20,000 nt of DNA from an uncultured virus (IMG/VR IMGVR_UViG_3300022661_000087) (Duplodnaviria; Heunggongvirae; Uroviricota; Caudoviricetes): the IMG/VR virus record IMGVR_UViG_3300022661_000087; one strand, given 5' to 3'. Below, piece by piece: positions 1 through 20,000 of this stretch (positions are counted from its first letter, which is position 1; each line of letters starts with the position of its first letter). A program made the translations under genes and the position numbers. The notes beneath the pieces were generated by a model. That model was not told where the DNA came from. It did not search any database and worked only from the letters and a program-made list of their open reading frames with translations.

Positions 1-1
1 A

Positions 2-2473
2 TCTCCTTATTTCTATATTATTAGCGAATAGGGTAAACGTATTTTAAATATTGGTGATGGCACTGGATTTGACTTTGAAGATTATCCATATTTACAATAT
101 TCAATTGAAAAGTTCCAGCGAGATAAAGATGGAACAATTCTTTTAGTTAATTTAACTGATGAAACTGGTTCAACTATTAAAATTGAAGATATAGATGAGG
201 CTAAAGAATTATTAAATTCTGAATGTTCAATTTTAAGAAGTGATGCTTATAATCGTTTTTAGATAAAAAAGAGCATTACTCAAAAAGATTATGATAATAT
301 TTGTTTAGATATTGAGGATTATCGTACTAAGAAATTAGCATATTTAAATACTTGGACAGAAGAAAATGCTGAAACTTTTATTGATAAGACTTATGAAGTT
401 GAATATATTCAAAAAACTGGTTTTATTGGTACTGGTACACAAAAAACGAATTGGCTTGAACCTTATGGAAGAAACCTTTCTAAAGGTTATTATTTAAAAT
501 CTAATGATTTTACTTATACTGCTTTTAGTAAAGAGGATGGTATTGCAAGCGGTCAAGGTTCAGGCTTTTTACTTGATTTAACAAATGGACACATTAATGC
601 AGCAAATTTAAGCATTGCTTCAAAAAATGTATTTATTGATTCTGGTAAAAATGCTGACCCATTTTTTATTATTAAAGATAATGATGGATGTAATTTAATT
701 TATGCTGGACAATAGGATTTTTATATTCAATCTCATACATATTCAAGATATGCTCTTGGAGATAGGCTAACTGATGATAATGGTAAACAATATTATTATC
801 CAGGTATGAAAATTGATACTGATGGAAATAATTTTTTATTTGATATTAGAGGTAATTATCAATCAATAGTAAATATTAATAAGGATGAATTTTTCCTGCA
901 AACTGATAATTATAAAATTCGAGAATATATTACTATAACAAAGTGTTATAATCAAGATTATAGTATGAGTTTTGATATACAGGTCGGTAAAGCTGAAAAA
1001 GGACATATTATTTATACTGCACCAAATTTTAATAAAAAAAGTGAAAATGTTACGACTGAAGAACATACTTCTATTACTTTATATGAAAGTAAAAAAATTG
1101 ATGGAATAATGTGGTATAAAATTAACACTGAGCAATGGATACCAGCATTATCTTTTGAATCGATTGAGGTAAATGATGAAGGTATTGGTACTGGTATAAC
1201 TTATTTAAACCAAATTATTTATAGCGATTCTGATTATAATTCTATTAAAGTTGGTTTTACCAAAGATTCTCATGTTGCAGGTGTTAATATTTAGGCAACT
1301 AGAGCAGTTGATGGAGTAGAGTGGTATGCTATTGAAGTACTTGAAGTTGAACATTGGCTACCTGATTATTCTATTAAAACTGGTTCTTATGGTTCTGGTA
1401 TTAGATTGGATTTGTAGGGTGGCTATATTGATGCTTATGATTTTATTATTCGAGGTGAATCTAGCACAGACCCCACTGCAGGTTCTTATTTATTATTAGA
1501 TAGTTAGACTCCGCAATTTGTAGTTCATTTAACTACTCCAGACAGTGATGGTATAATTGATTTAGATTTAATTAAAATTTCTCCAGATGAATTTTATTTA
1601 CATTCTGCAAATTGGTTAGAAACTACTACTCAAGTCACCACTTAGCGGACAGCTAAGATGGACGGCGGCTGGAATATTAGAAGCGGTCCTGGTATGGATT
1701 ATTCTATTATCGGTTATTCTTCAAGTGGAAAAAGAGTGGTTGTATATGAAAAGCAGGGAGATTGGTACTGTATCGGAGAAGACTAGTGGATTTGGTATGA
1801 AGGTTTAACTGATTTTCAAGAAGGTGGAACCGCAAATAAAACTTATGGCACTGGCATGGAAATTGATTTAAATGATGGTCGTATTACTGCATACAATGCC
1901 AATAATGCGGGTAAAGAATTATTAATTAATTCATTACATGATACATATCCAATTTAGCTAGGAGAAATTGGAGATTATAATTTCCAAATTGGTTGGGATG
2001 GTAGTTTAAAGGGCGGTAGTATTTATGGTTGGAGTATTGATGCAAGTGGTACTGCTACGTTTAATCGTTTGAATGCTAATGGTGGTGTTTTAAGTTGGAT
2101 GTCTATCGGCAGTGCTAATATTTATGATGTTGATATTACTTCTGGCACAATTGCAGGTATGGACTTCACTACTGGAGGCATTACTGCAGGAGATTGGAAT
2201 TTTAGTTCTAATGGATTAAGTCATAATGGAAAAGCAATGGAAAAGAAAACTTATGATTCAGTGCGCTATATGTCTTTATGGACAAAAAAAATACCAGTAA
2301 GTGTTAGCGGTAGTTGCTCAATCGAAATTGATGGAGCTACTTATTATGGCTCATGCTCTGCTAGTGGAAATACTACTGAAGATGTAGGTTATAGAATTGG
2401 TTATGTAAAAATGATTTATAATGGATATGGAGAAGAAGGTCAAGAGTCTGCAGTTGTATTTACACCAGCATAA
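2..2473 (+). CDS. 5'-truncated large tail/spike-type structural protein (>823 aa, code 15) with beta-rich repeat modules and three SH3b-like inserts
   Basis: Frame 2 is open from position 2 to TAA at 2471-2473 except for nine TAGs (29, 260, 713, 1292, 1415, 1505, 1643, 1784, 1955). This joins track ORFs 806..1294 and 2069..2473. It contains a recurring module (YL.S..Y ... G.G..IDL..G.I.A) and the SH3b-like segment WNIRSGPGMDYSIIG...VYEKQGDWYCIGED*WI. The product call is inferred from context. Confidence 0.8.
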
Positions 2474-2482
2474 GGAGGATTT

Positions 2483-2851
2483 ATGACAAATTTAGAAATT
2501 TTAAATTTTAATGAATTATATAAACAAAATTTTCAAGAATTTGATGAATTATTACCAGCAAAAATTTTGTTTTATATTTATAAAAATTTATCATTAATTG
2601 AAATATCATTACATCATATTGAAAATACTAGAAATAGTATTATTCGTAAATATGGTTTAATTGATGAATCAAAAGATACTATTCAAATTCCTCCAGAATT
2701 AGTAAATGAAGCTAATAAGGAATTAGAAGAAGTTTTAAAAATGGAATAGGAAATTAATTTTTTTTTAATTCCTCTTTCATGGTTTGATAATATCAATCTT
2801 AATCCAAAGCATATGAAATTATTATGGATTATGATTGATGAAAATAAATAA
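2483..2851 (+). CDS. small phage protein (122 aa, code 15), paralogue of the next gene; resembles DUF1617-type tail-region proteins
   Basis: AAGGAGG at 2472-2478, ATG at 2483, one TAG at 2747, TAA at 2849-2851. The read-through C-terminus (EINFFLIPLSWFDNINLNPKHMKLLWIMIDENK) aligns with the C-terminus of 2866..3234. The family assignment is from memory and tentative. Confidence 0.8.
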
Positions 2852-2865
2852 AGGAGAAAAAGGTT

Positions 2866-3234
2866 ATGACTATGACAAACTTTGAAATTTACAATATCGC
2901 TAAAGCTATGAGTGACGCCTTCCAGGATGGCACTCAGTATCTACCCGTTAAAGTAAATTTTTTCATTCAGAAGAATAAAGCTACTTTAATGTCTTTAGCA
3001 CAAGATATTGATAATTCTCGTATTGAGATTGTTAAGAATTATGGTACTATGGATGAAGAATCCAATCAGTTTATTGTACCAGAAGATAAGATTGAAGCTG
3101 CTAACGCAGAGTTGATGGACCTGTTTAATATTGAGCAGGAAGTTGATATTCGTAAGGTAAGCATTGATTCTTTCCCCGAAGATATTAATCTAACCACTGC
3201 TCAAATGGAAGCTTTAATGTTTATGATTGACTAA
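2866..3234 (+). CDS. small phage protein (122 aa), paralogue of the preceding gene; DUF1617-like, possibly a tail/fibre assembly chaperone
   Basis: AAGGAG at 2851-2856, ATG to TAA, no TAG. End-to-end similarity to 2483..2851 (MTNxEI...LPxK..F.I.KN...I.N.R..I...YG..DE...P......AN.EL......EQE...INL....M..L..MID). Confidence 0.85.
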   Translation: MTMTNFEIYNIAKAMSDAFQDGTQYLPVKVNFFIQKNKATLMSLAQDIDNSRIEIVKNYGTMDEESNQFIVPEDKIEAANAELMDLFNIEQEVDIRKVSIDSFPEDINLTTAQMEALMFMID

Positions 3235-3240
3235 TAAATA

Positions 3241-3276
3241 TTAGGCCAGGTAAATTCTTACCTGGCCTAACTTATT
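3241..3276 (+). terminator. probable intrinsic terminator or RNA stem-loop
   Basis: Perfect 13-bp inverted repeat TTAGGCCAGGTAA (3241-3253), loop ATTC, TTACCTGGCCTAA (3258-3270), just after the stop at 3234. The U-tract (CTTATT) is weak. Confidence 0.7.
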
Positions 3277-3298
3277 GCAGAGAGAAAGGAGATTAATG

Positions 3299-6259
3299 AT
3301 GTCAACTACTAAGTTATACCCTCCTTATGTGGATGCCGCAGTTCCTGCGCAGTTGGTTCCCGATGAAAGTACATCAGAAACAACTGTAACACTTACTATT
3401 CCATTTCAATTAAATAAGGCAGTAAGTTGGGTAGATTTAAAATCAAAAAATAATATCGCTTTGATTTTGAAAACGGTATCAACAGGAAAAGTTTTATTAG
3501 ATTGTTATAAAGGAAACGTTTTAACTCATTATGAACCTACTGGAACACCTGCCGCAGAATTTGAAATTCCTAAAACTACTTTTAATCCTGTTGCAGGATA
3601 GTTTTATAAAGCTCAAATCGCTTTCATAGATTCTGATGATACTATTGGATATTTTTCAGATGTGACTATTGTAAAATTTACTGCAATTCCTGTTATAGGT
3701 ATTGCCGATTTAGCAAGTGGAACAAATGCTGCTCAATATGTTTATACAGGTACATTTTCAACTACTGATGTTACTGAAAAAGTATACTCATATGAATTTA
3801 ATATTTATGATTGTGAAACTGGTATTTTGCATGACACAAGCGGAGTTATGATTCATAATAGTAGCACAGATGTTGAACGAGGAAAATCTTTTGACACTTG
3901 GACATCTTATAAAACTTTAATTAATGAGCGTCAATATTCTATATGTTATAAAATCACTACTATTAATGGTTTAGTGATGGAAACTCCAGCTTATGGAATA
4001 ATGGCAGTTGAAACTTTAGATTTAGTTTCTAGAAACACAGAATTTATTGCAACATTATATAGTGATGATGCTTATATTCATGTTCATATTATGCCAAAAG
4101 ATATTGATGCAAATATTAAAGCAATTACTGGTAATTTTATTTTAGTTAGAGCATCCAGTGAAGATGGATTTGGTAGCTGGAATGAAATTTATCGTTTCAC
4201 TTTGATTAATAACTATCCTTTAATGACACTGTGGAAAGATTTTACGGTGCAACAAGGATATTCATATAAATATGCTGTACAAGCCTATAATTCTAAAGGT
4301 GTTTATTCTAATCGATTAGAATGTAAATATTATGCTAGTGAATTTGATGAGCGCAATGATGACATTAACCGTTAGAATTGGAACGCAGAAGCAAAAGACC
4401 CTATTGAAAATACTAACTTAAATTGGAATTATTTACAAGAAATTGATGGGTCTCCAACTCAAAGCGGATTGCCAGTAGATTTTGAAGATGCTTTTCTTTA
4501 TGATGGAAAACGCCAATTGAGAATTAGATATAATCCAAAAATTAGTTCTTTTAAATCAACTGTGCTTGAAACTAAAATGGATACTATTGGAGGTAAATAT
4601 CCTTTTATTTTCCGTAACGGAAATGTTGAATATAAAGAATTCCCAATTTCTGGTTTAATTACAATGATTAGCGATGAAAATGCTTTATTTATGGAGTATT
4701 CCAAAGAGAATCCAAAAGCTCGTCAGTACAGTACACATCCGCCATATGGTAATGATAATGCGGATTGGTGGGTCAGCCGAACTGGTATGACGGAGTATGA
4801 AGTTCGTAAGACCCAAGAAAAAGAGTTAAGTGGTTCTCCCACAGCATTAACCGCTAGCAACTTCCGCAAAGAGCGTGAATTTAAAATGGAAGTGTTGGAT
4901 TGGTTAACAAATGGACAACCAAAGCTATTCCGTTCTCCAAGTGAAGGTAATTTTATTGTTCGTTTAATGAATACATCATTAACTCCAAATGATTAGCTTG
5001 GACGATTATTACATACTTTCCAATGTACTGCATATGAAATTGCGGAATGTAATTATGAAAATTTGGAAAAATATAAATTTATTCATGCTCTCGATACTAG
5101 TTATTAGGAATTGAAATTTAAAATGCTTGATTGCAATAATACTTTTGCTGACATTCATAATAGACAAATTATTATTGAGGGTGGTGCTTATTACTTTGCA
5201 GTAATAGACCAATGGAGTTATTTGGCATTGAGAATTACTTATGTAAATGGTACATCACAAGTTATTGATGTTGGTAACTCTACTGGACAATATTTGTTTG
5301 ACAGAGAAGCATTAAAAAATAACCCAATTGTTTCAGTAACTTATCAAGAAGGTGCGCCAGATGTTGGTAGTAAAATTCTTTATGGATATTATGATACATC
5401 AGATATTGCTTTCTCTTTGATTGCAAGTGTTACAAGAGAAACAGTAGTAGACCAAATTATCGGTCATCCGCAAACTTCTTACCGTATAGATAGTTTTAAA
5501 ATTAATTATGTTCCAACTATTTTAAATGGCATTGGATATAGAGACTTGGCTACAGATTTACAAAAGGTTTATGGCGAAGATGAAATTCCTCGTTGTACTC
5601 TTGGTAAATTTTATTACTTAAAAGCTGAACCCAGAGAGATTACTTTCGTTTATAAAAAAGAAAATAAATATTATGAAACTTCAAAATGTGATTATGAGGT
5701 TCGTCAATGGGATGATACTTATATTTATAAAGTTTTCGAAGAAAGTGATGGCACTTGGGAACCTACGAATCAATATAGTGGACGTCCTTCAAATAATATC
5801 TTATTACCAGAGCCAAGTTATCTCATTAAATTAAATGCAAAACCCAATAATGGTATTGACCCTGCTCAAGAAGAGTTTGTGGATTTAAGTTTAAAGGGCG
5901 GTAGCGGAGGTAATGCTCCTATTACTACTGGACGATATGAACTTTATTTTGATTTGGATAAAGTAGAAAGTTTATATATTGGCTCAGGAGTTGTATGTGA
6001 AATTTGTTATAATTTAAATACAATTCATTATGAAGCTGAAGATAATATTCAATATAGTGAATTGGTTGATAGATATAATACTTGGCAAAATCAGCAACGT
6101 CAATATAAGAGTATGTTAAAAGCTGGATATAGTAGATTTAGTGCTGATGTCGAACGCGCTCGTATGAATATGGAACAAAGTTATCATTAGTATTTAAATC
6201 AGTTAGAATATATTCTAAATAAGTTGCAAATGGATGGTGAGACTTATTATGCTTTATGA
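3299..6259 (+). CDS. large baseplate/distal-tail-like structural protein (986 aa, code 15) with Ig/Fn3-like N-terminal region
   Basis: AAGGAG at 3286-3291, ATG at 3299 (alternative 3296). Track ORFs 3275, 3662, 4469 and 5111 are all in frame 2 and separated only by TAGs (3599, 4373, 4994, 5105, 6188). It ends at TGA 6257-6259, overlapping the next start. It has an Fn3-like motif (WKDFTVQQGYSYKYAVQAYN) and a central block LRIRYNPKISSFK...TIGGKYPFIFRNG...WLTNGQPKLFRSP that resembles distal-tail proteins (inference). Confidence 0.75.
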
Positions 6260-8891
6260 TAAAGAATTTTTGAAAGAATTAGACAAAACAAAAAATAAAA
6301 TTGTCTATGCAAAAGTTACTGCATTAACAGTAGAGGAGTCCCCCATTGAAAGCATTGAAGGTCGTGTAACCCAGGGCTCCATCAACTTAGATGGAGCTTC
6401 TGCGGTTCGTCGTTCTTGTTCTTTATCAATTGTAGCAGAGAATTTTGATTATTCAGATTATTTATGGGGAATGAATACAAAATTTAAGTTAGAAGTTGGT
6501 TTACAAAATGATATAAATGATAATTTTCCCAAGATTATTTGGTTTAACCAGGGAATTTATATCATAACATCTTTTAATACATCTAGAACTACCAATAACT
6601 TTACTATTACTATTCAAGGAAAAGATAAGATGTGTCTTTTGAATGGAGAAGTAAGTGGTACTATTGGAGTACAAACAGATTTTGGTACAATTGAAGAAGA
6701 AGATAATGAAGGAACTTGGACTATTAGACAAATTCCTATTCCTGAAATTATCCGTAATATGGTTCATGCATATGGCGGAGAGCCTTATCATAATATTATT
6801 ATTAAAGATTTGGATACTTTAGGCTTAGAGCTTTTAGAATATCGATATGAAAATATGCCTTTAGTTATGTATCGTAAAGCTGAAAGTAATACATATACAA
6901 ATATTGCTTTTTTAGATAGTGATATGTATTTATATGCTAATAAAAATGATGTCGGAAATGTAGATAGACGAGTATATTTAAAAGATATTCCCGATACACA
7001 TTTTGAACAATTAATTGATGGTATTCATACAAGTGACCCTATTGTATATTATGATGATGATAAAGTTGGTTATAAATTAACTAAGCTTCAATACGGAGAT
7101 ACCGCAGGTTATCGAACAACTGAATTAACATATGCTGGAGACTTGATTGCAAACGTAGGTGAATCAATTACTTCAGTTCTTGATAAAATTAAAAATATGC
7201 TTGTTGAATTTGAATATTTTTATGATGTTGATGGACGTTTTATATTCCAGAAGAAACAATCTTATACTCAGACTCTATGGTCTCCAAGTGGTGATGGAGA
7301 AGAGGGAATCACAGAAGGTTTGTTATGGAGTGATGCAGCCGCATATACTTTTAGTGGCAGCGAATTAATCACTGGTTTTAATAATAATCCTAATCTTTTG
7401 AATTTAAGAAATGATTTTTCAATTTGGGGTGAGCGCACAGGCATTAGCGGCGCGCAGATTCCCATTCATTTAAGATATGCCATTGATGAAAAACCAACTG
7501 CTTATACAACTATTTCTTTAACTGATTTTGATAAGAATGAAGTGGATGAATATAATTTAAAATATGGAACTAATTTAAATAATAATCCTACTTCAATTAC
7601 TTATTCTATTCACCCAAATATAAGTAGAGCTAAGAATTATGTTTATGTAACCGATTGGCGAGAAGTATTGTTCCAAATGGCAAAAGATTATTTTAGATAT
7701 AATACTTTAAGTGATTTTGAAATTCGTGTGCGCGAAGCTAATCCAACGCTCTATCCCTCTGGCCGCACAGGCTATGAACAATATTATACTGATATTCAAG
7801 TTTGCTGGCGTTAGCTATATAATCCTGAATTACGAAATAAAATTGCGGATTATACAGAAGAAGTTGCGGCATTAACGAATGAAGTGACTCAATTAGATAA
7901 AGAAATTAAAGATATTGAGAATAGAATTATTGAGTTGAATAATCAATTAAATACTGCTACAACTCAGAGTTCAATTGATAGTATTGTTTTATCAATTTTA
8001 TCAGAGCAACAATCTCGCACTGATAAAAAAGCATTAAAATCTCAAAAAGAATATCTTATCGAACAAAAATAGGAAAGCTTAGATTCTTATAATGAAGATA
8101 TTTTAAATTATTATCAAGCTCAAGAATTAATAGAATTAGATGTAAATTTATTTACTACTCAATTCCCCTTATCTGACAGTTAGATTACTATTGATATTTT
8201 AGATAGATTTAGAGTTCCAAAAAATTTAATTGATGAACTTTTAGATGAGAAAACCGGTGAACCAATTGCTATTAAAGTTAGTGATATCCTTTACTTTAAA
8301 GAAGATGATAGTTATTTTTCTGTTATTAATAGTTTTGATGATTATGTAATAATTGCATATTATGATAAATCTCGTCTACATTGGCATAAAAATGTTTTTG
8401 AGAATCCTGGCAATTTAAATTATTGGTTTGACTTTTTAGATACCGCAGGAGAGCTAAGCCAATATAGCGTACGAGCTATTGGAGCACGGACGAAAGCTAT
8501 TAATGAAAATACCGTAAAATCCATTTATTTTAGGGAAACTCCACCAGTTATTTTCGCACCAGATATTACTGATGACGAAAAAATGAGTGGTTATAAATAT
8601 ATTCAAATTCCAGAATTTGAAATGGATAAAATGTTTAGTATTAGTGCGCAAGGTAAATCCGCAAAAGAGCGCTTAGATGAACTTCTTTACAATCATGGTT
8701 ATTGTACAGAAAGTGCAACTATTACAACAATTCCAGTATATTATTTACAACCAAACACTCGTATTAAAGTATCTGATGAAAAAACTAAAATTGATGGAGA
8801 ATACATTGTAAGTAAACTTACAATTCCTTTAGCACATAACGGAACTATGTAGTTAACTACAACGAAAGCTGCATAGACACTATTCTTTTAA
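6249..8891 (+). CDS. baseplate hub / tail-associated protein (880 aa, code 15) with an inserted coiled coil
   Basis: ATG at 6249 after GGTGAG (alternative 6234). Track ORFs 6234, 7884 and 8583 share a frame and are joined through TAGs at 7812, 8070, 8181, 8850 and 8874. TAA at 8889-8891 is followed directly by the next RBS. Hub-like motifs: GSINLDGASAVRRSCSL, FEYFYDVDGRFIFQKK and C-terminal YYLQPNTRIKV...GEYIVSKLTIPL...M*LT. Heptad-rich segment at ~7830-8090. Confidence 0.78.
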
Positions 8892-8906
8892 GAGAGGAGA
8901 GGTTTG

Positions 8907-9242
8907 ATGAAAAAGATATATCAATATCGTTATTATGGTAATTCTGATAAGAATTATCCGAAAACTCTAAATGCAGTACAATTAACCAATGGTGAAATTT
9001 TTAATCAAACCAGTAAGGGTTCCATTACTCATTTGGGTTTACAAGCTTCTCCAGGGACTACATTTTTTTTGAATCGTTGTGATAATCCAATTCAAATTGG
9101 AAAAACTGGCATCTACGAGATAGATGTTACTGGTTATGGTTATATTACAAGCATTATGTTTAGTGATGATACACTAGCATTAGTAAATGAAGATAATGGA
9201 ATTATTATTGATATTATATATGAAGGAGGTACTATCGAATGA
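8907..9242 (+). CDS. small beta-rich hypothetical phage structural protein (111 aa)
   Basis: AGGAG at 8895-8899, ATG at 8907 (TTG at 8904 alternative), TGA at 9240-9242 overlapping the next ATG (ATGA). No TAG. Confidence 0.8.
   Translation: MKKIYQYRYYGNSDKNYPKTLNAVQLTNGEIFNQTSKGSITHLGLQASPGTTFFLNRCDNPIQIGKTGIYEIDVTGYGYITSIMFSDDTLALVNEDNGIIIDIIYEGGTIE
9223..9230 (+). promoter_or_regulatory. strong Shine-Dalgarno site (AAGGAGGT) for the translationally coupled gene at 9239
   Basis: Full anti-SD complement 8 nt before the ATG that overlaps the upstream TGA. Similar sites occur at 2472, 2851, 3286, 10477, 11972 and 15362. Confidence 0.8.
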
Positions 9243-10426
9243 GCAGCTTTTATGGTTAGATGCGATGGCAAGATTTTCAATAGTTCTTCTTAAATTTCAC
9301 TCTTGAGAATAAACATTTCTCAATTGATAATATTTTTAACACTTCCCCTCCATATGAAAATCAAATGACAATTGATTCGACTATGAAGGCATATATTCAA
9401 CCCAATGAAGATTTTGCCACATTTAGATTTAATGCAGCAAATCATTGGATTAAATTTGCGCCAATTGATTCTTAGGGGGATGAAAAAACAACTTATGTTG
9501 GTTTTTCAATTTTTCATAATAAACCAAGCTTGGAAAACACCTATACTCTCCCAATTTTTGAAATAACAGTTCCACCTCAAGGCGCAACAATTGAAACCCT
9601 TGAGAGTGGAGAATGCTTTAAGATTGCTTGTCCTGCCTTTGATTAGGCAGGACATTTCGTAGGTGAGGACCATATAGAGCCAACCTATTTTAAAATGCCA
9701 GAGCAATTGATTCAAATTAATCAATCTGGTAATGACTTAGTTCTAACAGCTGAAAAGAAATTCCATTTTGCGAACACAGATGGTTTAATTGAACTATTAT
9801 TAAATGACGCAAAAAATAAATTAACTTTTTAGCATAAAACAAACTTCAATGACAACGAAGAGCCTGACTTTACTCCATTTTTATACGAAGGTAGTAAAGA
9901 TGGTACTCAATATGAAGTTGAAATTGTATTGCAACCTGGTGATTTTATTTCAACTTATCATACGGTTTACGATAAAGCGGGTCATTTAACTACATTAGAA
10001 AAAATTTATTATCAATTACCAATTAGTGAAGTTGATTCTCGTATTGAAGTATTAGAAAATACTGTTGCTGAAATTCAAGGCGACCTTGAAAATATGGCAG
10101 GAGATATTGAGACTTTAACTGAAGATTTAGAAGATGCTATAAAAGATGTACAAAGAGCAAATGAAATGGTTGGTACTGATGCTGAGTTTGGTAGAGGAGA
10201 CCAAGCCGCAAAAGAAGATTCTTTTAATGCTTGGGTTAAGGCTTTTACAGGAACAACTCAAAATTATCAATCTTTATCAGGAGCTCTTTCTGCAGTACTT
10301 GAAAAATTATCTTCTAATAATACTGATTTAGATAATGAAATGCGTAACTTCTATTCTCGTATTATTGCTATTGAAGATTATTTAGATGGTAAGTTTACCG
10401 ATTATGAGCCTCCAAAGAGAAGCTAA
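9239..10426 (+). CDS. fibre-like structural protein (395 aa, code 15): two N-terminal repeat modules plus a C-terminal coiled coil
   Basis: AAGGAGGT at 9223-9230, ATGA-coupled start at 9239 (MSSFYG*...), TAGs at 9257, 9281, 9473, 9644 and 9830. It continues in frame into track ORF 9929..10426 and ends at TAA. Internal repeat: LESGECF...FD*AGHF...YFKMP vs LQPGDFI...YDKAGHL...YYQLP. Confidence 0.78.
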
Positions 10427-10491
10427 TATGCGTAATTTCTTTCTTTTAAGAAATTAAGATATAATATACTTTTAAGAAAGGAGAGAATATT

Positions 10492-11973
10492 TTGGCAAAT
10501 TATGTAAAATTTATGCGTGGTACTCCAAAAGCCTATGAAATGCTTTTAGCCAGTCCAGAGAAACCAAATGTTGATACTCTGTATTTTATTTCCGAAGCAG
10601 ATTCAACTAATGCGGTTTTATATTTGGGTGAAAAGCTAATTGCGGGCGGAGGGGGAGCCGCAGGTAAAATTAGTTTAAGTGAATTAACTGATATTGCTTT
10701 AAGTACAGATTTAGCTGATAAGTCTATTTTAGTATATGATACTGCTTCTGGTAAATGGGTTGATTCTACATTAGAACAAGCTATTTCTGTTTTTATCGGT
10801 GCTAGTAAAGATGCCGCAGGTACAGCTGGACTTGTTCCTGCTCCTGGATATGGAGAAACCAATAAGTTTTTACGTAGTGACGGCACTTGGGTATCTATTG
10901 ACAGTTCAGAAGCAACTATTATCACTATTGAAAATGAAGATAGTGAAGTCATGCATCAAGAGTTAATTGACCAAACCACACAAGGATGGTTGCCATGTGC
11001 TGGTGATATTATCATTATTAAAGATATTATTATCAATGATAAATGGCAATATACTTCTTATGTATATAATGGTTCTACATGGGCAGCCATGGATGGAAAC
11101 TATAATGCTGAAAATGTGTATTTTGATTCTGATTTCACATTTACAACTCCAGTTGGTACAGTCACTATTCCTTCTACTGGTAGTAAAGTAGTGGATGCCG
11201 CAGGAATGAATATTAAGGATTTCTTAGCAAGTATTTTTGCAGAAGAACAAAATCCTACTACGACAAAACCCTCTATTGCTTTCACTAAACCTTCTAGTGA
11301 TGCTTCTTATGAAGTTGGAACTAAAGTAACTCCAGAATATGCATTAAGTTTCAATAGCGGCTCTTATACTTATAATACAAGCACTGGTGTTACTGCTACT
11401 GGATGGAATGTTAGTGATGGAACAACCACTCGTACTACTCAAAGTGGTACAATGGAAGAAATTCAAGTTATTGATAATATGAATTATAAAATGACTGCAA
11501 CAGCTACTTATTCAGATGGTATTATTCCTTCTACCAATTTAGGCAAGGAATATGCTGATGGACAAATTAAAGCTGGAACCACCAGTTCTAAAACTTCTAA
11601 ATCCATTACTGGATATAGACAATGTTTCGCTGGTGGAGATTCTACTGGAAGTGAATTAACTTCTGCTTTTATCCGAGACAATTTAGCTGGAAAAGGCAAC
11701 GGCGCTTCTAATAGAACTATTACTTGGGCCGCAAGTGATTTAGCTGGTATGAAGCGTTATATTATTGCGCTTCCTGTGAGCGGTGGTAAGAGCGTTACAT
11801 CTGCAATTATTACTTCAAGTATGAATGCAGATGCTACTGCAGATTATGTAAAACAAACCGCAACTGTTGAGGTTGAAGGTGCAAATGGATATACTGCAGT
11901 CGATTATAATATTTGGATTTATGCACCTGCTTCTATTGCAAGTACAGAAGTGCATAGTGTTACAATTGGATAA
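10492..11973 (+). CDS. putative tail/head fibre or decoration protein (493 aa)
   Basis: AAAGGAG at 10477-10483, TTG start, TAA stop, no TAG. Fibre-type motifs (KFMRGT...TLYFI, LSELTDI...SILVYD..SGKW, AGLVPAP...KFLRSDGTW) and a Thr/Ser-rich Ig-like C-terminal half. Confidence 0.8.
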   Translation: MANYVKFMRGTPKAYEMLLASPEKPNVDTLYFISEADSTNAVLYLGEKLIAGGGGAAGKISLSELTDIALSTDLADKSILVYDTASGKWVDSTLEQAISVFIGASKDAAGTAGLVPAPGYGETNKFLRSDGTWVSIDSSEATIITIENEDSEVMHQELIDQTTQGWLPCAGDIIIIKDIIINDKWQYTSYVYNGSTWAAMDGNYNAENVYFDSDFTFTTPVGTVTIPSTGSKVVDAAGMNIKDFLASIFAEEQNPTTTKPSIAFTKPSSDASYEVGTKVTPEYALSFNSGSYTYNTSTGVTATGWNVSDGTTTRTTQSGTMEEIQVIDNMNYKMTATATYSDGIIPSTNLGKEYADGQIKAGTTSSKTSKSITGYRQCFAGGDSTGSELTSAFIRDNLAGKGNGASNRTITWAASDLAGMKRYIIALPVSGGKSVTSAIITSSMNADATADYVKQTATVEVEGANGYTAVDYNIWIYAPASIASTEVHSVTIG

Positions 11974-11987
11974 GGAGGACCTGAGAT

Positions 11988-13505
11988 ATGGCTGTAATTA
12001 AAAAAGACGGCAACTTCATGGGCCTTCCTATGAATGTTGCGAGAGGTAATCCAATTCCTCTTGATAAAAGTGAAATTTGGTACTCTTATGATGCAATGGA
12101 ATTATATGCGCAAACCGACCCTGTCGCATATGTAGGTCAGATTCTAGGTTTAGTAGACGAGGCCGCAGGCACCGCTACTGCGTATATCATTCTAAATACC
12201 GCAGGTGAACTCCAAGAGATTGGAGCATCTGTTGATATTCCATCTTTAAAAGGAGATAATTCTTCTATTGTTATTAGCAATGAAATTATTGCCTTAAAGA
12301 ACTGGGGTGTGCAATATTATAAATATGTTGCCGCAACTGAAACTACTGAAGCTGAATATGTCCTTCAAGTCGTTGACGATGAGAATCCTTGGATTAGTGG
12401 TTTAGAGCCAAAAGTCGCCAGCGAAAATGGACAAATGGTATTAGCTTGGTATCAACCAAACCCAACTACCATTGAAGGTTTAGGCAGTTAGTTATCTTCT
12501 TTACAAACTTCTGTAAGCGATTTACAAAAGAATACTTATACTAAAACTGAAGTTGATGAGAAGATTGCGGATGCTGGTCATTTAAAGCGAATTATCGTTA
12601 ATTCTGTGGATGATATTAATGTTAATGCCGCAGATGCTGACCAATATATTTATATGGTATTAACTTCTCCTGAGGATGAAGCTGACAAGTATGATGAATA
12701 CATGGTTATTATCTATGAGGATGAAACTGGTACAGAAGTTCGTTATGCTGAAAAAGTTGGTTCTTGGGAAGTTGATTTAAGTAATTATGTTACTAAAAAT
12801 GCGCTACAAACCGAACTTAATAAGAAAGTTGATGCTGAAGAAGGCTATTCTTTAATTTCTGATGAAGAGAAAGCTAAATTAGAAGGCATTTAGGAAGGCG
12901 CGCAAAAGAATTATATTACATCTGTTGATTCTACAAATTTTGCAGTTGAAGCTGGTAAGCTTTTATTGCAAGGAATTACTGTTGCACAAGTTCAAAATTT
13001 ACAATCACTTTTGGACGCGAAGGTAAATAAAGAAGAGGGTAAAGGATTATCTTCTAATGATTTCACAGATGAACATATTCAAATTATTCAAGGTAATACT
13101 GCTAATATTCAAACTCAAGGTAATAAAATTATTACCATTGAAAATGTATTGAATGATACAGAGATTGATGGTATTGTTACTCCTGGTTTGATTACTAAAG
13201 TAAATAATTTAAGTGTTGCTGTTCAAACTAACACTGATAATATTTCAACTAATGCAGGAAAAATTTTAACCTTAGAAGGTACGGTAGCAACGTAGGGTAA
13301 TGCTATTACTTTATTGCAAAAAGATGTTAGTGATTTAAAAACTAAGGTAAATGCAATTGATTTAACTAAATATGTTACTACTGAAATTTTCCAAGCTACA
13401 GTTGGTAACCTTGAAGAATTACAACAAAATCAAAAGACACTTCACACTCAGGTAAAAGAAATTCAAGAAGCTATTACTTGGGGTGAAATTAAAATTAATG
13501 CTTAA
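11988..13505 (+). CDS. fibre-like protein with coiled-coil C-terminus (505 aa, code 15)
   Basis: AAGGAGG at 11972-11978. Track ORFs 11988, 12606, 12966 and 13314 are one frame joined through TAGs at 12489, 12891 and 13293, ending at TAA 13503-13505. Phage-fibre motifs YTKTEVD, EKAKLEGI*EGAQKN and KVNKEEGKGLSSNDFT run straight across the TAGs. Confidence 0.8.
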
Positions 13506-13522
13506 GAAAGGGGAAAACTATA

Positions 13523-15244
13523 ATGGCAGATACTAATGTTATCACTATTGCTGATAATTCTCAGATTAAGTTTTTACATGGTTTACAAACCGCATTAGAT
13601 GCTAAGAGAACCGCCCGTTCTGGCGAAAGCGGCACTTTCTACTTAACCAATGATACTCATAGATTATATGTTGGTTTAAGTGATGGTAGCATCGAAGCTG
13701 TTAATGAAGGTATTACTACTTACGCTACCGTGGAGGTCTTACCAACTGCAACTGCTTTAAATGCTGGTCAATTCGTTTATATTACAGCTGATTCTATTTT
13801 AGCTGTTTCCAATGGTCAAAATTGGGTTCAAATTAATGCCAATACAGATACCAATTATACTTATGGCGGTCTAGTCACAGGAGAGCAGACAGGAACTGTT
13901 ACTGTAACAACTACTTTAACAGAAATTGGTGAAGGTAATAGAAAACCTTCTTTCGCTTTCTCTTTAACTGGTAAAAATGGTATTACTATTGTTGAAGGTA
14001 CAACAGATGGTACTATTGAAGTATATGGTACTAAATTAGCCAGCGAAAATATGGCTCAAGATAATGCTGCAAAGATTAAGTTAGTTAATGAAGCTGGCGT
14101 ACAGCAAAGTGCAGTTGTTATTCAGGGTGGTACCAATGTTACTGTTAGCGAAGATAATGGCGTAATTGGAATCACTGCTGCTGACACTAAATTAGATGGT
14201 AACACTCATACAGCAACCGCTCATGCTTGGGACCCCAAAGATGAGACCAATAAGCCTGGTGGATTTACTGTAACAGTTAAAGATACTGCTAATAGAAGTT
14301 CTAGTAGCACATTTAATCCTGCAATTAAATATGGTGGTAGTGGCACTTCTACTGCTAAGTTCAGCAATGGTACTGCGACTTTAGATGTATATACTAAAGC
14401 AGAAGTTGATGCTTTAAGAGCAGACTTTGACGCAATGGAATATCAGGGTGTTGTTAATAGCATTCCTACTGGTTCCATTAAGAAAGGTTATACTTATAAA
14501 GTTGGTCAAGCTTTTGATGTAACAGTTAAAACCGATACTGGTACTGAAGAGATTACAGTACAGCCTGGTGACTTATTGATTGCAGAAGGCACTGAAGGTA
14601 CCAATGGATTCTTAACTACTGTACAATGGGGTTATGTTCCTTCTGGTAATGAAGATACCACTTACTCTGTTGGTTTATTGACTCCAGCAAATGGTGGTGG
14701 TATTCAATTATTAGAAAAGAAAACTGGCACTACTACTGGTACTAATGCTGGCTCTATTTCTGTATTAAGTGGAAATTGTATTACTGTAAGTCCAAGTTCA
14801 GACACTGCTTCTAAGGCAATGTCACTGACTATTAATCATAATGCGGTAAGTACTACTGACCCAGCTAGAGATACCACTGGTACTTTAAATAATCCTACTC
14901 TTGGCACCGATTATGTTGCTAAGTCAGAAGATATTGTTATTATTGATGCCTCTAAGGGCGAAAATGGTATTGATAGAGACAATTATGGTCATGTACAGAA
15001 AGTATATACCAAGACCGTTAAAGTCTATGATACTAATGCTCGTTTAACTGGAATGACTTCCAGTGTATCTAGTGACACTGCTAAGACTAAGGCTACTGTT
15101 TCTATTAAGGGTCAAGTAACTGGCTCTAAGAATCAAAAGAGTGAGCAAACTGCTACTTTCTATGTTGAGTCTACTCATAGTAACTTGCAGGTAAGTAGCT
15201 CTGGCTCTAGCGTTCAGATGTCTCTGGTTTGGGGCACTTTCTAA
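13523..15244 (+). CDS. putative tail fibre protein (573 aa, Thr/Gly/Ser-rich)
   Basis: AAGGGG RBS at ~13509-13514, ATG to TAA, no TAG. N-terminal module KFLHG...GTFYLTNDTHRLYVG, plus YTKAEVD, VQPGDLLIA...W.YVPSG and RDNYGHV motifs typical of fibres. Confidence 0.8.
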   Translation: MADTNVITIADNSQIKFLHGLQTALDAKRTARSGESGTFYLTNDTHRLYVGLSDGSIEAVNEGITTYATVEVLPTATALNAGQFVYITADSILAVSNGQNWVQINANTDTNYTYGGLVTGEQTGTVTVTTTLTEIGEGNRKPSFAFSLTGKNGITIVEGTTDGTIEVYGTKLASENMAQDNAAKIKLVNEAGVQQSAVVIQGGTNVTVSEDNGVIGITAADTKLDGNTHTATAHAWDPKDETNKPGGFTVTVKDTANRSSSSTFNPAIKYGGSGTSTAKFSNGTATLDVYTKAEVDALRADFDAMEYQGVVNSIPTGSIKKGYTYKVGQAFDVTVKTDTGTEEITVQPGDLLIAEGTEGTNGFLTTVQWGYVPSGNEDTTYSVGLLTPANGGGIQLLEKKTGTTTGTNAGSISVLSGNCITVSPSSDTASKAMSLTINHNAVSTTDPARDTTGTLNNPTLGTDYVAKSEDIVIIDASKGENGIDRDNYGHVQKVYTKTVKVYDTNARLTGMTSSVSSDTAKTKATVSIKGQVTGSKNQKSEQTATFYVESTHSNLQVSSSGSSVQMSLVWGTF

Positions 15245-15306
15245 TTTGAGGACAAAAGGTATTAAGAAGATTATTTCGATTTTTAATTAAAAATAGAGGA
15301 TAATCT

Positions 15307-15347
15307 AATAGGTGGGAAGAAGATTATTCTTCTCACCTATTTTTTTG
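15307..15347 (+). terminator. Rho-independent terminator
   Basis: 15-bp stem AATAGGTGGGAAGAA (15307-15321), loop GATTA, TTCTTCTCACCTATT (15327-15341) with one G-U pair, running into a T tract (TTTTTTTGTTT). Confidence 0.85.
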
Positions 15348-15377
15348 TTTATAAAGGAAAGAAAGGAGTTTAAATAA

Positions 15378-18300
15378 ATGAGTGAAAATTATGGCGTAAA
15401 ATTTATTCCCGTCCGTGGTTATGACAGTAAGATTCAGCGTGCTGAAGTAAAAGATGGATGGATTTATTTTGCTACTGACTCAGGTAAGATTTATGTCGAT
15501 AGCCAGGGCCAAAGAACTATTATGGGTTCTGCGGGCGCCGCAATTTACTATGGTGAAGTTGAGAAACCAGAAGTAAATGAAGATACGGGCTATGCAACAC
15601 TTCCTAAGAGCGCTGTTAAAGGCGACCCTAAGAAAGGCGACCTAATCTTAAATTCCGATGGCGGTTTCTATAAAGTTGAATTAATTGGTGAAGAAAACTA
15701 TACTTGTGAATTGCTTTCTATTAGCGGCACAGGCGGTGGTCCCGGTGTTTCTACTACTACTCGTCCATCAATCACTTTAACTCTTGACAATACTAACTTC
15801 ATTAATGGTCAAGAGGCTTATTTCCATATCCATGCAGAGTCTGCTTTAGAGGCAGATGGTGTGACTCCTGTAGATACTACATTGAATGTTGTATATTCTT
15901 TGGGTACTCGTATTTCCGACGAGGTTATTGATAACTATACTACTCAAACTCGTACTTATAAGACTGGTGAATCTGACTATGAGGGCGTTCCCGGTATTAT
16001 TGATGACTATATTGAAATTGGTTCTCTATTAAGAGAGTCCTCTTCTAGTGTGTTGTCTGTTTATGTTCAAGGTGCAAATCATGACGAAAAGAGCCGTACT
16101 AGAACTGTTGACTTATCAACTTCTGCATTAAAGTTATCTCAAGTTTCCGGTTATAACCCAGCTACTAGATATCCTACTTCTGGATTCCAAATTAAGTGCG
16201 GAGTTGTTGGTTCTTTATCTAAGGTCTTAGATTTCTACTATGATGATATGAATACTCCTGCTGAAACTCGTGTTATCGAGGCTAACGTAGCTAATAGTAC
16301 TCAGACATTTACAGTAGGTACAGACAAAGCAACTCACGGATATCACACTGTTCGTATTGAGCTGTGGCAGAACACTGGTACTTCCAGTAATCCTAAGAGA
16401 GGCTTAGGAGTTGCTCCACTACAGTACGAAATCGCAGTTATTGAAACAAGTAACGCAAATGCTAAACCAGTAATTTGGTTGGGTGATTATAAGGCTGAAT
16501 ATTATAATTACGATACTATTCAAATCCCATTCTTAGTATGGGACCCCGCAAATACCAACTCTACTAAAGTGCATTTGTATAAAAATAATATTGAATTAGA
16601 AAGCTCTCCTCGTGAAGTTAAGGATTTCTCTAAATTTGATTATTGGGAAATCGCTGATGCAGAAATGAATGCTTTAAATAGCTATCAAATTTCTTGCGGC
16701 GAGACTGATGAAAAATTTGTAAAGAGAGAAATTGAGTTTAAGGTTGTTAAAGACCCTAATCGTGATATGACTGTTGAGCAAGCAGGATTGTTATTAGACT
16801 TCTCTGCTACTGGACGTTCTAATTCTGAGTCCGCAGCTAAGAGACAGTTGTGGAGCTACACTTTGAATGGTGAAAAGAAAAACGCCATTTTCGAAAACTT
16901 TAACTGGTATAATAACGGTTGGATGATGGATTCAAGCATTAACCAGTCTTGTTTAAGAATTAGTAATGGTGCTAGATTAACTATTCCATTCCAGCAGATG
17001 GTATTTGCTGCCGGTGTTAGTGGACAAGAGTCTCACACTGTTGAAATGCAATTCCGCATTCGCAATGTTCAAAAATATGATAATTTAATTACCAATATTA
17101 CTCGTTATCAAGGTGACGGTGTTTGGTATGAAGCTTTTAAAGCTCAAAAAGATACTGGCTATTCTAACTATGATGCTTACTTACAAGCAACTTTAGACCC
17201 AGACACTTATGATAATTTAAAATTCCAAACTGTTGAAAAGAATATTAACATTACTAATGTTGCCGCAGGTCTATATGATTATGATGCAACCAATGTTAAA
17301 GCTACTGGTTTCTGCGTAGGCACTCAGGACGCTTTCTTCTCAAACGGTGAAAATACTGTTAACGTAAACTTCGTTGAAGATGAGTTAATTAATTTAAGTT
17401 TTGTATATCAAGATAGCTTAAAATATTTATATATCTATATCAATGGTGTTATTACTGGTGTTATTAAGTCTACTGACCCTGACGCCTTTACAATTAATAG
17501 TGGAAACTTTGTTTTTGATTCTAGTAATTGTGACATTGATTTATATAAATTGAGAATTTATAATTCTGATTTAAATGTTAATCAGATTGTACAAAATTTC
17601 TCTGTTGACCGCAAGAACGTAAAAATCTTTGACCAAAGTAATGCTTATGCATTGGCTGAGGAGAATAATAACTTGAAAGAGTTCCAGTTCTCTTATGAAG
17701 CTATGCTAAGATATAATGAAGCTCATCCTAATGAACCTTTGATGCCTTATATCATTTACGATACTGGTAATGCTACTTTACCATATAGTAAAGACGATAC
17801 TAAATACATTAGTGTTGAATTTGTTAATACCAATTTGGAAAGAGCATATGCTAATGGTGAATTAGAGACTTTGGCTCGTGCCGATGGCTTAATCGCAGAA
17901 GGCGAAACTGATAGTGATAAAATTAAAGAAGGCGTTCGCTTGTACTACAAGCATCATTGCCCATCTTGGATTTCCACTATGACTTCTGGAGATAAGGTTG
18001 AATTTGCTGTTCAGGGTACTTCTTCTGAGTTCTATCCTCGTCGTAATTACAAGATTAAGACTAAGGTAGAAGGAGAATTTAACTGGAAACCAATCGCAGA
18101 CTTTACCGATAAGGAGAAGGCTGAATTAAAACCAGAAGAGCTTGAAAAATTAAATGCTGAGAGCGGTTTATATATGGAAGAAGATTCTTTAAATATCTTC
18201 TTAAACCGTGGACCTTATGCTGAAGTTTTCGTTTCTGATAAAGCTAAGTTAGCACAAGATAGTAAATATCTTGGACATGAAGAGTGTCGTTGTGCTGATG

Positions 18301-20000
18301 GTTGGTATATGAATAACTATACTAACGGAACTGATAGATGGACTATGAAAGTTGACTATATGGAATCTTCTGGTTCTTATAATGCAGGTTTCGCATCTAT
18401 GGTTGGTAATGGTTATACTAAGCATCCTTTACAAGACTATTTAGCTTTATTAAATAATACCAATAAATTGGAACCTGTTGTTGATAGCTCTGTAATTAAG
18501 GGTATTCAATGGGGCGATTATCGTACTTCTCTATTGGGCTTCCCAGTTATGGCTTTCCAAAAGACTGGTTCTGGTGATAATGCTAAGTACACTTTCATCG
18601 GTTTTTATCGTATGCTATTGGATAAGAGCTCTACTCAGGTCTTAGGATTTAAACCTAGTAAGAAAGTTACTAATAAGTTATTCCCTAAGGGTTTAAATGA
18701 TGAAGGTAAAATGGAATATAAGGCAGTACGAGACGTAGCAGAATGTTGGGAGTTCTCTAACAATGCTCGTGGTTATTGCTCTTATCGTGACCCATGGAGC
18801 CGTGTTGAATTAAGTTTCACACCTCCTACTAATTCCACTGTATCTAATGGTGGTTACAATGCTAATGAAGCTCCTGTTGTGGCTAATAGCTTTGAATATC
18901 GCTATCACAGCAAGGATGATTATATTGATATTCTTTACAACTTTAAGCAAGCTACTCAAGGTGAACTTGATGAAGTTGCTGAAGAGTTAGGAACTGGTAC
19001 AATTCCTAAGGGCGATTTAGAGGCCGGTGCTAAGGCATTGCTATCTACTCATACTAACTGGGAAAAAGTATGTAAATGGTTGTGGAGTACTAATCTTGAT
19101 GCAGTTGTTTCTCAAGGTACTTACTCTAAAGTTCCTGTCGGTGATACCGCATATGAGCCTGGTGTTTACTATGTAGTTGATGGTGATTCTTACGCTATTA
19201 GTAATGCCGACTTTGATGAAAACACTACCTACTATGTAAAGAGTGAAGTCAACTATGATGTTATCTCTTTAACTGCAGAGACTTATATTTCTGGTAAATA
19301 TTACATCTTAAATGCTGATGGTGAATATGTAATTGATGCAAGCACTTTTGATGCAAATAAGATTTATTATGAGCAGGTTATTGAAGACCGCTACATTCCA
19401 GTTAATGTATGTCCTGCTGAGTATGTATATGTAAAAGGTAAGTTCTATGTATTAACTGCTGGTGGAAACACTGTAAGCACTACTGATGATGTTTATGCAT
19501 TATCTAATGAAGAATTTGCTGGTGGTACTACTTACTACGAATTTAAAGATGATACTCTAGACACTCTAAATTCTCGTTTTGACTTACTGATTGCTCCAGT
19601 AGATATTGAGAATGCTACTTATGATGCTAATACTCAGTATTATACTTGGCATGGTATGGACTATGATATGAACGACGCTGCTAATGGTGTTGTTATTAAC
19701 CCAGGTCATCCAACCGGTGCAGTCCGCGCGGTCGAAACTCCTTCTCAAGAGGATTGGGCTAAGGGATTATATTATGTAGCAGCTCCAAAAGAATATGCTG
19801 GTAAGGTTTATACTCACGATACTAAAGAATATCGTGCTGCTAAATTTACTAATGAATTTGAAGACCACTTCGACCCTGAGTACGTTGCTACTTACTTCGT
19901 AATGACTGAAGTTATGGAGTTATACGACTCTCGTGGTAAGAACTGTATGATGGCCTCTTGGGGTCATCATGAAGCTGGTGGAGAGTACATCTGGTATCCA
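15378..20000 (+). CDS. 3'-truncated giant protein (>1541 aa): fibre-type N-terminal module, Ig-like region, LamG/ConA-like domain, CotH-like atypical kinase domain
   Basis: AAAGGAG at 15362-15368, ATG at 15378. The frame is open to the window end, which explains its absence from the ORF track. LamG-like motifs: YIYINGV, DIDLYKLRIYNSDL (~17430-17575). CotH-like motifs: QGTSSEFYPRRNYKIK (18012-18059), WTMKVDYMESS (18339-18371), FIGFYRMLLDK, and EFEDHFDPEYVATYFVMTEVMELYDSRGKNCMM...IWYP (19855-20000). Confidence 0.85.
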   Translation, partial: MSENYGVKFIPVRGYDSKIQRAEVKDGWIYFATDSGKIYVDSQGQRTIMGSAGAAIYYGEVEKPEVNEDTGYATLPKSAVKGDPKKGDLILNSDGGFYKVELIGEENYTCELLSISGTGGGPGVSTTTRPSITLTLDNTNFINGQEAYFHIHAESALEADGVTPVDTTLNVVYSLGTRISDEVIDNYTTQTRTYKTGESDYEGVPGIIDDYIEIGSLLRESSSSVLSVYVQGANHDEKSRTRTVDLSTSALKLSQVSGYNPATRYPTSGFQIKCGVVGSLSKVLDFYYDDMNTPAETRVIEANVANSTQTFTVGTDKATHGYHTVRIELWQNTGTSSNPKRGLGVAPLQYEIAVIETSNANAKPVIWLGDYKAEYYNYDTIQIPFLVWDPANTNSTKVHLYKNNIELESSPREVKDFSKFDYWEIADAEMNALNSYQISCGETDEKFVKREIEFKVVKDPNRDMTVEQAGLLLDFSATGRSNSESAAKRQLWSYTLNGEKKNAIFENFNWYNNGWMMDSSINQSCLRISNGARLTIPFQQMVFAAGVSGQESHTVEMQFRIRNVQKYDNLITNITRYQGDGVWYEAFKAQKDTGYSNYDAYLQATLDPDTYDNLKFQTVEKNINITNVAAGLYDYDATNVKATGFCVGTQDAFFSNGENTVNVNFVEDELINLSFVYQDSLKYLYIYINGVITGVIKSTDPDAFTINSGNFVFDSSNCDIDLYKLRIYNSDLNVNQIVQNFSVDRKNVKIFDQSNAYALAEENNNLKEFQFSYEAMLRYNEAHPNEPLMPYIIYDTGNATLPYSKDDTKYISVEFVNTNLERAYANGELETLARADGLIAEGETDSDKIKEGVRLYYKHHCPSWISTMTSGDKVEFAVQGTSSEFYPRRNYKIKTKVEGEFNWKPIADFTDKEKAELKPEELEKLNAESGLYMEEDSLNIFLNRGPYAEVFVSDKAKLAQDSKYLGHEECRCADGWYMNNYTNGTDRWTMKVDYMESSGSYNAGFASMVGNGYTKHPLQDYLALLNNTNKLEPVVDSSVIKGIQWGDYRTSLLGFPVMAFQKTGSGDNAKYTFIGFYRMLLDKSSTQVLGFKPSKKVTNKLFPKGLNDEGKMEYKAVRDVAECWEFSNNARGYCSYRDPWSRVELSFTPPTNSTVSNGGYNANEAPVVANSFEYRYHSKDDYIDILYNFKQATQGELDEVAEELGTGTIPKGDLEAGAKALLSTHTNWEKVCKWLWSTNLDAVVSQGTYSKVPVGDTAYEPGVYYVVDGDSYAISNADFDENTTYYVKSEVNYDVISLTAETYISGKYYILNADGEYVIDASTFDANKIYYEQVIEDRYIPVNVCPAEYVYVKGKFYVLTAGGNTVSTTDDVYALSNEEFAGGTTYYEFKDDTLDTLNSRFDLLIAPVDIENATYDANTQYYTWHGMDYDMNDAANGVVINPGHPTGAVRAVETPSQEDWAKGLYYVAAPKEYAGKVYTHDTKEYRAAKFTNEFEDHFDPEYVATYFVMTEVMELYDSRGKNCMMASWGHHEAGGEYIWYP
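19122..19780 (+). repeat. Tyr-rich degenerate protein repeats (about 3.5 units of 40-50 aa) inside the kinase-like domain
   Basis: YEPGVYYV...YAISNADFDENTTYYV / YISGKYYI...YVIDASTFDANKIYYE / YVKGKFYV...YALSNEEFAGGTTYYE / partial YDANTQYYT...WAKGLYYV. Confidence 0.75.

Follow-up and report, generated by a model that had tools for sequence, protein, structure and literature searches.

Gene content of the window and of its contig

The DNA under study, hereafter the window, is a 20,000-nucleotide stretch of an uncultured Caudoviricetes virus (IMG/VR IMGVR_UViG_3300022661_000087). It carries eleven genes on the plus strand (Table 1), and in six of them, with five TAG-free genes interspersed, the reading frame runs through TAG, a stop codon in the standard genetic code. 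The window is very probably the tail and fibre module of a siphovirus-like gut phage of about 200 kb, of Bacillota-phage ancestry, which reads TAG as glutamine (NCBI table 15) and would switch to this code after expressing its early genes under the standard one.

The window lies within a single contig of 105,768 bp (G000), which is 100% identical to positions 5643-111410 of a public viral contig of 171,580 bp (G001). Because it ends partway through a DNA polymerase III alpha gene, G000 is a fragment. Its gene content is of the large tailed phage type, including a tape measure gene of 3,115 codons, 51 of them TAG, a 2,547-amino-acid tail gene bearing SH3 domains, the 3' end of which opens the window, fibre-like genes, and metabolic genes for NrdD, NrdG, dUTPase, RuvC, guanylate kinase and FolD. 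The nearest named phages, judged by the large terminase subunit (TerL), are large siphoviruses of Bacillota. TerL identity was about 51% with Enterococcus phages VRE9, H1 and EF1, 50% with Geobacillus virus E3, 45% with phAss-1, and 33-35% with SPbeta-like phages and the Lactococcus 949 group. A megablast search of the window against phage records gave zero matches. The sequencing runs containing the stretch come from animal fecal and gut metagenomes (17 listed studies).

Relatives were retrieved with the product of the fifth window gene. Below, G001 and G002 designate recoded genomes, G003 a standard-code genome, and G004, G010 and G011 longer or bridging assemblies. Pfam and PHROGs scans of the window genes gave little functional information, and a PDB sequence search with the fourth and fifth gene products returned no match at E up to 0.01.

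TAG is read as a sense codon

An earlier note on this DNA had proposed TAG-to-glutamine recoding on the strength of 28 in-frame TAG codons in six genes. The same counts were obtained here (9, 1, 5, 5, 5, and 3 per gene, over 3,712 codons), together with zero TAA and zero TGA in the reading frame. In the +1 frame of the same genes, TAA, TAG and TGA occur 121, 71, and 38 times, and in the +2 frame 226, 69, and 284 times. The ten visible gene ends are TAA (eight) or TGA (two), as the note had listed. The gene at 9239, which it had singled out for its translation signals, indeed has AAGGAGG at 9223-9229 and a start overlapping the preceding TGA as ATGA, and its TAG 9257 is codon 7.

The comparison of coding density under different genetic codes, which the note had suggested, gave a clear difference. 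With coverage defined as the share of the contig occupied by stop-to-stop frames of at least 200 amino acids, G000 is covered to 0.496 under table 11, to 0.587 when TGA is taken as sense, and to 0.798 when TAG is taken as sense. From table 11 to TAG sense, coverage rises from 0.655 to 0.848 in G001 and from 0.638 to 0.877 in G002, whereas G003 shows no such gain (0.742 to 0.765). Under table 11 the six window genes fall into pieces, in line with the earlier warning that standard annotation would shatter them. Structural genes of this phage break into dozens of fragments under standard annotation, and table 15 is needed to annotate them.

Assembly errors do not account for the in-frame TAGs. 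Proteins 100% identical to those of the window are encoded by three further public contigs (L007, L008, and L009), and all 28 TAGs are retained in L007. Comparisons with individual runs were made on assembled contigs. No mismatch was seen with those of run X7, a run without a flag as possible source, in matching pieces that include 9 of the 28 TAG sites. A strain 96% alike was found in run X9. Similarity to relatives continues across the TAGs, for instance in one segment over residues 6-883 of gene 5. The related phage G002 (176,574 bp) also has in-frame TAG codons, mostly at other sites, and in-frame TAG is absent from the aligned genes of G003 (175,638 bp, with terminal repeats).

Gene termination and the distribution of TAG point in the same direction. 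Among the 91 genes of G001 supported by homology, the terminator is TAA in 66 and TGA in 25 and never TAG, vs. 8 genes ending in TAG out of 94 in G003 (Fisher p = 0.007). A candidate TAG terminator at G001 143835 was rejected, as this codon is a sense TAG followed by a conserved C-terminal extension. The gene concerned encodes a metallophosphatase whose Cys-rich extension is present in G002 and not in G003 (Table 1). Along G001, TAG is concentrated in the structural block, where it occurs in 17 of 34 genes (103 of 18,290 codons). The replication and metabolism block has it in 8 of 44 genes (22 of 14,660 codons), and the GC-rich, minus-strand early block in 1 of 13 genes (1 of 1,959 codons). 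Plus-strand CTA shows a strong depletion in the early region, with 2-12 per 2.5 kb, which makes TAG rare in all coding-strand frames.

A second reassignment was also considered, because coverage with TGA as sense reached 0.92-0.98 in two bins of the contig's GC-rich first 20 kb. It was rejected. The real genes of these 20 kb, recognized by comparison with relatives, are small minus-strand genes free of in-frame TAG and TGA, and the long plus-strand frames are their shadows.

Assignment of TAG to glutamine

The standard-code relative G003 provides an independent test of the encoded residue, since its own codons are known to be standard. G001 and G003 were compared over 95 alignment segments containing 59 aligned TAG codons, with residue profiles derived from the same alignments. 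The G003 residues opposite these TAGs were Q (23), E (7), K (5), D (5), N (4), R (4), S (3), A (2), T (2), I (2), L (1), and V (1). For reference, true CAA and CAG codons face Q in 46 and 51% of cases, respectively. Glutamine was the best fit for TAG, with Glu 45 and Lys 48 log-likelihood units behind. This tabulation of residues opposite TAG, which the earlier note had suggested, thus agrees with its assignment.

Individual sites of the window add to this picture. The column at TAG 3599 holds Q in 111 of 120 homologues, with CAA in two standard-code relatives and TAG in G002, and at TAG 7812 Q is found in 52 of 100 cluster representatives. The paralogue alignment by which the note had placed Gln opposite TAG 2747 was recovered, and three relatives have CAG at this site. 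The SH3 and repeat pairs that it had quoted (WYCIGED*WI/WYKINTEQWI and VAT*GNAITLL/IQTQGNKIITI) can be read in the translation. Other columns are dominated by different residues, as at TAG 4994 (T 79, V 17, Q 13) and TAG 8850 (S 65, N 16, T 9, Q 8).

Altogether, the reading of TAG as glutamine in this phage is supported, as the note had claimed, by the restored frames, by Gln in the standard-code relative, by the loss of TAG terminators, and by the tRNA(CUA) and release factor 2 (RF2) genes described below.

A tRNA array and an RF2 gene adjoin the phage body

The note had also called for a search for the decoding machinery, which met with partial success: tRNA(CUA) and RF2 genes were found in the longer assemblies, and no match to a glutaminyl- or glutamyl-tRNA synthetase (GlnRS, GluRS) was obtained. 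ARAGORN and Infernal found no tRNA in G000, G001 or G002. For G001 and G002 this absence is an assembly artefact, because both contigs end on either side of the region that holds a tRNA array in G003. The idea of a phage devoid of suppressor tRNA was hence rejected, the array being present in G004, G010 and G011. More generally, when both long recoded contigs end beside a tRNA array, a report of “no suppressor tRNA found” can itself be an artefact of fragmentation.

In G004 (402,311 bp), which contains G001 and G002 in series, 82 tRNA matches are grouped in two arrays, one on each side of the G001 part. Although rated 100% complete, this public contig joins two related phages, each about 200 kb long, in the order array, G001 body, array, and G002 body. 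Each array holds two adjacent tRNA(CUA) genes, i.e., four in total. Three of them begin with 5'-UGGG and have G73, a combination common to all five tRNA-Gln copies and found in no other isoacceptor. In work on the Escherichia coli GlnRS, U1 with a weak 1:72 pair, G2-C71, G3-C70 and G73 are reported as identity elements of tRNA-Gln. One of the tRNA(CUA) genes is unusually long (Table 1).

The RF2 gene, located between one array and the G001 body, encodes 360 amino acids and is intact under table 11. Its product scores 445.5 bits against the prfB model TIGR00020 (cut-off 370), scores below the cut-offs of the RF1 models, and contains the SPF and GGQ motifs. This is the only release factor match in G004; the G002-type phage therefore appears to lack RF2.

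By itself, G004 leaves unsettled which array belongs to which phage, and it is G010 and G011 that tie the RF2-bearing array to the phage of the window. G011 spans G001 1-5479, then RF2, then part of the array. G010 (28,174 bp) has 40 tRNA matches, two of them at the position of the tRNA(CUA) pair, as well as RF2, and has a 134-base overlap with the start of G001. The array of this phage thus comprises about 40 tRNA genes, with two tandem tRNA(CUA), in a segment of about 28 kb, and the body plus this segment amounts to about 200 kb.

Proposed code switch and alternative readings

The tRNA array and RF2 adjoin the early genes, which are poor in TAG, and share their strand. As all of these are readable in the host code, they would be expressed first. 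In the mechanism proposed here, the early genes, the array and RF2 would first be expressed under the standard code of the host, whose enzymes would then charge tRNA(CUA) as tRNA-Gln. The charged tRNA would read TAG in middle and late genes, while RF2 would keep termination at TAA and TGA efficient. Under such a switch, the TAG-bearing structural genes would be made only after it has taken place. The same model has been proposed for recoded phages by Borges et al. (10.1101/2021.08.26.457843).

Three other explanations were weighed against this one. That TAG is still a stop here, in genes broken in a decaying element or through assembly or sequencing errors, is barely conceivable. Table 11 does leave the genes in pieces, and the contig G000 itself has no suppressor tRNA. 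However, decay or error is opposed by the 28 in-frame TAGs set against no TAA or TGA, by homology running through the TAGs, by the identical sequence in three other contigs and in run X7, and by the sister phage with in-frame TAGs of its own at other sites. It is also highly improbable that the host itself reads TAG as Gln and that the phage merely follows, without any switch. TAG is never a terminator, the early genes included, as this view would have it; yet a tRNA(CUA) pair and RF2 are encoded by the phage itself, and its early genes are nearly free of sense TAG. No bacterium is known to use table 15. Borges et al. (10.1101/2021.08.26.457843) predict standard-code Firmicutes and Bacteroidetes as hosts for such phages. 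Somewhat less improbable, but still unlikely, is that TAG is sense and encodes another residue, be it Glu through a non-discriminating GluRS without amidation, Lys, or pyrrolysine. Glu, Lys and Asp are the next commonest residues opposite TAG, E, D, S or T abound in several window columns, a GlnRS gene was not found in the phage, and ARAGORN names the CUA tRNAs “tRNA-Pyl.” This label mirrors the anticodon only, however, and the likelihood margins in favor of Gln, the column at TAG 3599, and the acceptor pattern that three of the four tRNA(CUA) share with the phage tRNA-Gln copies all speak for glutamine.

Several observations nevertheless weigh against the assignment to glutamine and the proposed switch. 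Gln-majority columns occur at only 3 of the 28 window TAGs, the other 25 being variable, mostly polar (S, T, D, E, R, N), or gaps, and database proteins may themselves be table-15 calls, so that Q in close homologues is not independent. Neither the tRNA(CUA) genes nor the RF2 gene is on the contig of the window, where tRNA genes are lacking altogether. One of the four tRNA(CUA) departs from the acceptor pattern (U1-U72, C2-G71, C3-G70), and charging with Gln is suggested by acceptor-stem likeness only. The GlnRS/GluRS catalytic family was not matched in G004, nor in G003. Many Bacillota make Gln-tRNA indirectly, via GluRS and GatCAB, so that the suppressor may be charged by either route. Since the related recoded phage in G004 has no release factor match, RF2 is not required for recoding. 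Finally, the evidence is at the sequence level, and no run with the stretch is on record as RNA.

Comparison with known recoded phages and with the standard-code relative

The earlier note had presented the phenomenon as already known, and rightly so: publications already describe recoded phages of similar size that have suppressor tRNAs and in some cases RF2. Work by Ivanova and colleagues in 2014 is said to be among the studies on recoding. Borges et al. (10.1101/2021.08.26.457843) describe recoding with suppressor tRNAs in crAss-like phages, Lak phages, and six further clades, report RF2 in six Lak and two Agate genomes, and note that the code varies within clades. Recoding has also been published for jumbo phages of rumen, pig and human gut, some with RF2. 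Like the phage of the window, the clades of Borges et al. (Lak, crAss-like, Jade, Sapphire, Agate, and others) are described as having TAG concentrated in structural genes, early genes compatible with the standard code, suppressor tRNAs, RF2 in some members, and standard-code relatives within the clade, and they occur in animal and human gut. Use of table 15 by crAss-like phages was shown by metaproteomics (Peters et al., 2022, PMC9523058). The same TAG-to-Gln reassignment is found there, in phages that differ in lineage and host phylum from the present one, which is known from sequence alone.

Another parallel is phAss-1, for which, with its relatives, TAG-to-Gln recoding was described by Babkin et al. 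(2023, PMC10607447) and which NCBI files under “Caudoviricetes code 15 clade.” Both phages are of gut origin, use TAG as Gln in structural genes and have tRNA(CUA) genes (PMC10607447). They also share a tape measure of about 3,100 residues (3,149 amino acids in phAss-1, 3,115 codons here) and a DNA polymerase III alpha gene, and, going by the published description of phAss-1, neither has an aminoacyl-tRNA synthetase of its own. They are nevertheless distant. Beyond the TerL identity of 45%, a tail protein is 27% identical, there is no megablast match, and the genome is about 200 kb here vs. 136 kb in phAss-1. The RF2 gene is a further difference, none being mentioned for phAss-1 in the Results of PMC10607447. 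Members of the proposed genus Phassvirus are 82.7-86.4% identical to phAss-1 (PMC10607447), and since the present phage falls short of the identity required, it does not belong to this genus. It is rather a further, well-equipped example of an already known TAG-to-Gln recoding.

G003 has a gene order common with this phage genome-wide, with protein identities of about 30-87%. It differs by the absence of in-frame TAG from the aligned genes and by its eight TAG-terminated genes. Among its 21-25 tRNAs none has a CUA anticodon, even at relaxed settings, and a search of this genome for a release factor gene found none. This set of genomes could therefore serve as a natural comparison for stop-codon reassignment, as it brings together two recoded phages, one with a release factor match, and a standard-code relative with TAG terminators and without tRNA(CUA).

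A TAG-free fibre block and its possible import

The TAG-free genes of the window have no TAG among 87 Gln-type codons vs. 17.5% expected (P = 5e-8), and CAG is commoner in them (30 of 87, vs. 16 of 132 in the TAG-bearing genes; p = 1.5e-4). In G002, the counterparts of genes 6, 8, and 11 do contain TAG (2, 1, and 8, respectively), that of gene 3 has none, and the 573-amino-acid gene 10 has no match. Unlike their neighbors, genes 10 and 11 are nearer to the standard-code lineage (33 and 39-42% identity) than to G002 (no match and 29-32%).

From these sequence comparisons, the TAG-free block from 13,523 to 26,282 in window coordinates, which lies within the late operon and comprises the 573-amino-acid and 2,683-amino-acid genes and two more, might tentatively be viewed as a recent import from a standard-code relative, although this origin is rather doubtful. 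If true, receptor-binding genes would still flow from standard-code into recoded phages, with TAG accruing later by CAG-to-TAG change. The footprint of such an import would be a block that is CAG-rich and TAG-free next to neighbors that are CAG-poor and TAG-bearing.

Window genes and additional features

Coordinates are collected in Table 1. For genes 4 and 5 the frame is open upstream of the likelier ATG start, and ATG 8907 is likewise the likelier start of gene 6.

Table 1. Genes of the window with their in-frame TAG codons, and other features of the phage and its relatives. Coordinates are those of the window unless a contig or locus is named.
Feature	Coordinates	Strand	In-frame TAG	Description
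Gene 1	2..2473	+	29, 260, 713, 1292, 1415, 1505, 1643, 1784, 1955 (n = 9)	3' part (823 codons) of the 2,547-amino-acid tail gene, SH3 domains; ends TAA
Gene 2	2483..2851	+	2747	122 amino acids, phrog_1401; GC 19%; ends TAA
Gene 3	2866..3234	+	none	122 amino acids, phrog_1401; paralogue of gene 2, Gln opposite TAG 2747
Gene 4	3296..6259	+	3599, 4373, 4994, 5105, 6188 (n = 5)	987-amino-acid tail-module protein; likelier start ATG 3296, frame open from 3275; ends TGA
Gene 5	6249..8891	+	7812, 8070, 8181, 8850, 8874 (n = 5)	880-amino-acid tail protein, phrog_32343/phrog_1887; likelier start ATG 6249, frame open from 6234; ends TAA
Gene 6	8907..9242	+	none	About 111 amino acids; terminal TGA overlaps next start (ATGA)
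Gene 7	9239..10426	+	9257 (codon 7), 9281, 9473, 9644, 9830 (n = 5)	395 amino acids, coiled-coil C-terminal half; ends TAA
Gene 8	10492..11973	+	none	493 amino acids, phrog_35541; ends TAA
Gene 9	11988..13505	+	12489, 12891, 13293	505-amino-acid fibre-like protein with repeats; ends TAA
Gene 10	13523..15244	+	none	573 amino acids; higher GC (38%); ends TAA
Gene 11	15378..20000	+	none	First 1,541 codons of a 2,683-amino-acid protein; continues to window coordinate 23429
Early region	G000 1-20000 (L002) = G001 5643-25642			GC 43-48% vs. 30-38% elsewhere; small minus-strand genes
Tandem repeat, early region	L002 9013-9208			97 nucleotides, 2.0 copies, 75% matching
Metallophosphatase gene	G001 143706-144407	-	143835	Reads through TAG into Cys-rich C-terminal extension
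Long tRNA(CUA) gene	L102 2265-2361	-		97 nucleotides, about 22 of them as long extra arm (ARAGORN); same-place copy in the other array 75 nucleotides
Repeat of about 50-67 nucleotides	G001 ~345-401, 145379-145435, 154853-154915, 164966-165025			
Repeat of about 50-67 nucleotides	G002 ~1239-1291, 4965-5017			
Repeat of about 50-67 nucleotides	G004 1-29000, 199001-226500; L110, L111, L112			

Genes 2 and 3 are tandem paralogues, 33% identical, of a gene present as a single copy in relatives. The extra copy, gene 2, is very AT-rich and has one TAG, and the conserved copy, gene 3, has a GC content of 34%, is TAG-free and encodes Gln mostly by CAG. The product of gene 11 has a BspA-type leucine-rich repeat near its C-terminus and is probably a receptor-binding fibre. 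Finally, both recoded phages contain many copies, 90-100% alike, of the repeat of about 50-67 nucleotides listed in Table 1, in the tRNA arrays as well as in the early and replication regions. This repeat may be a promoter or terminator element.

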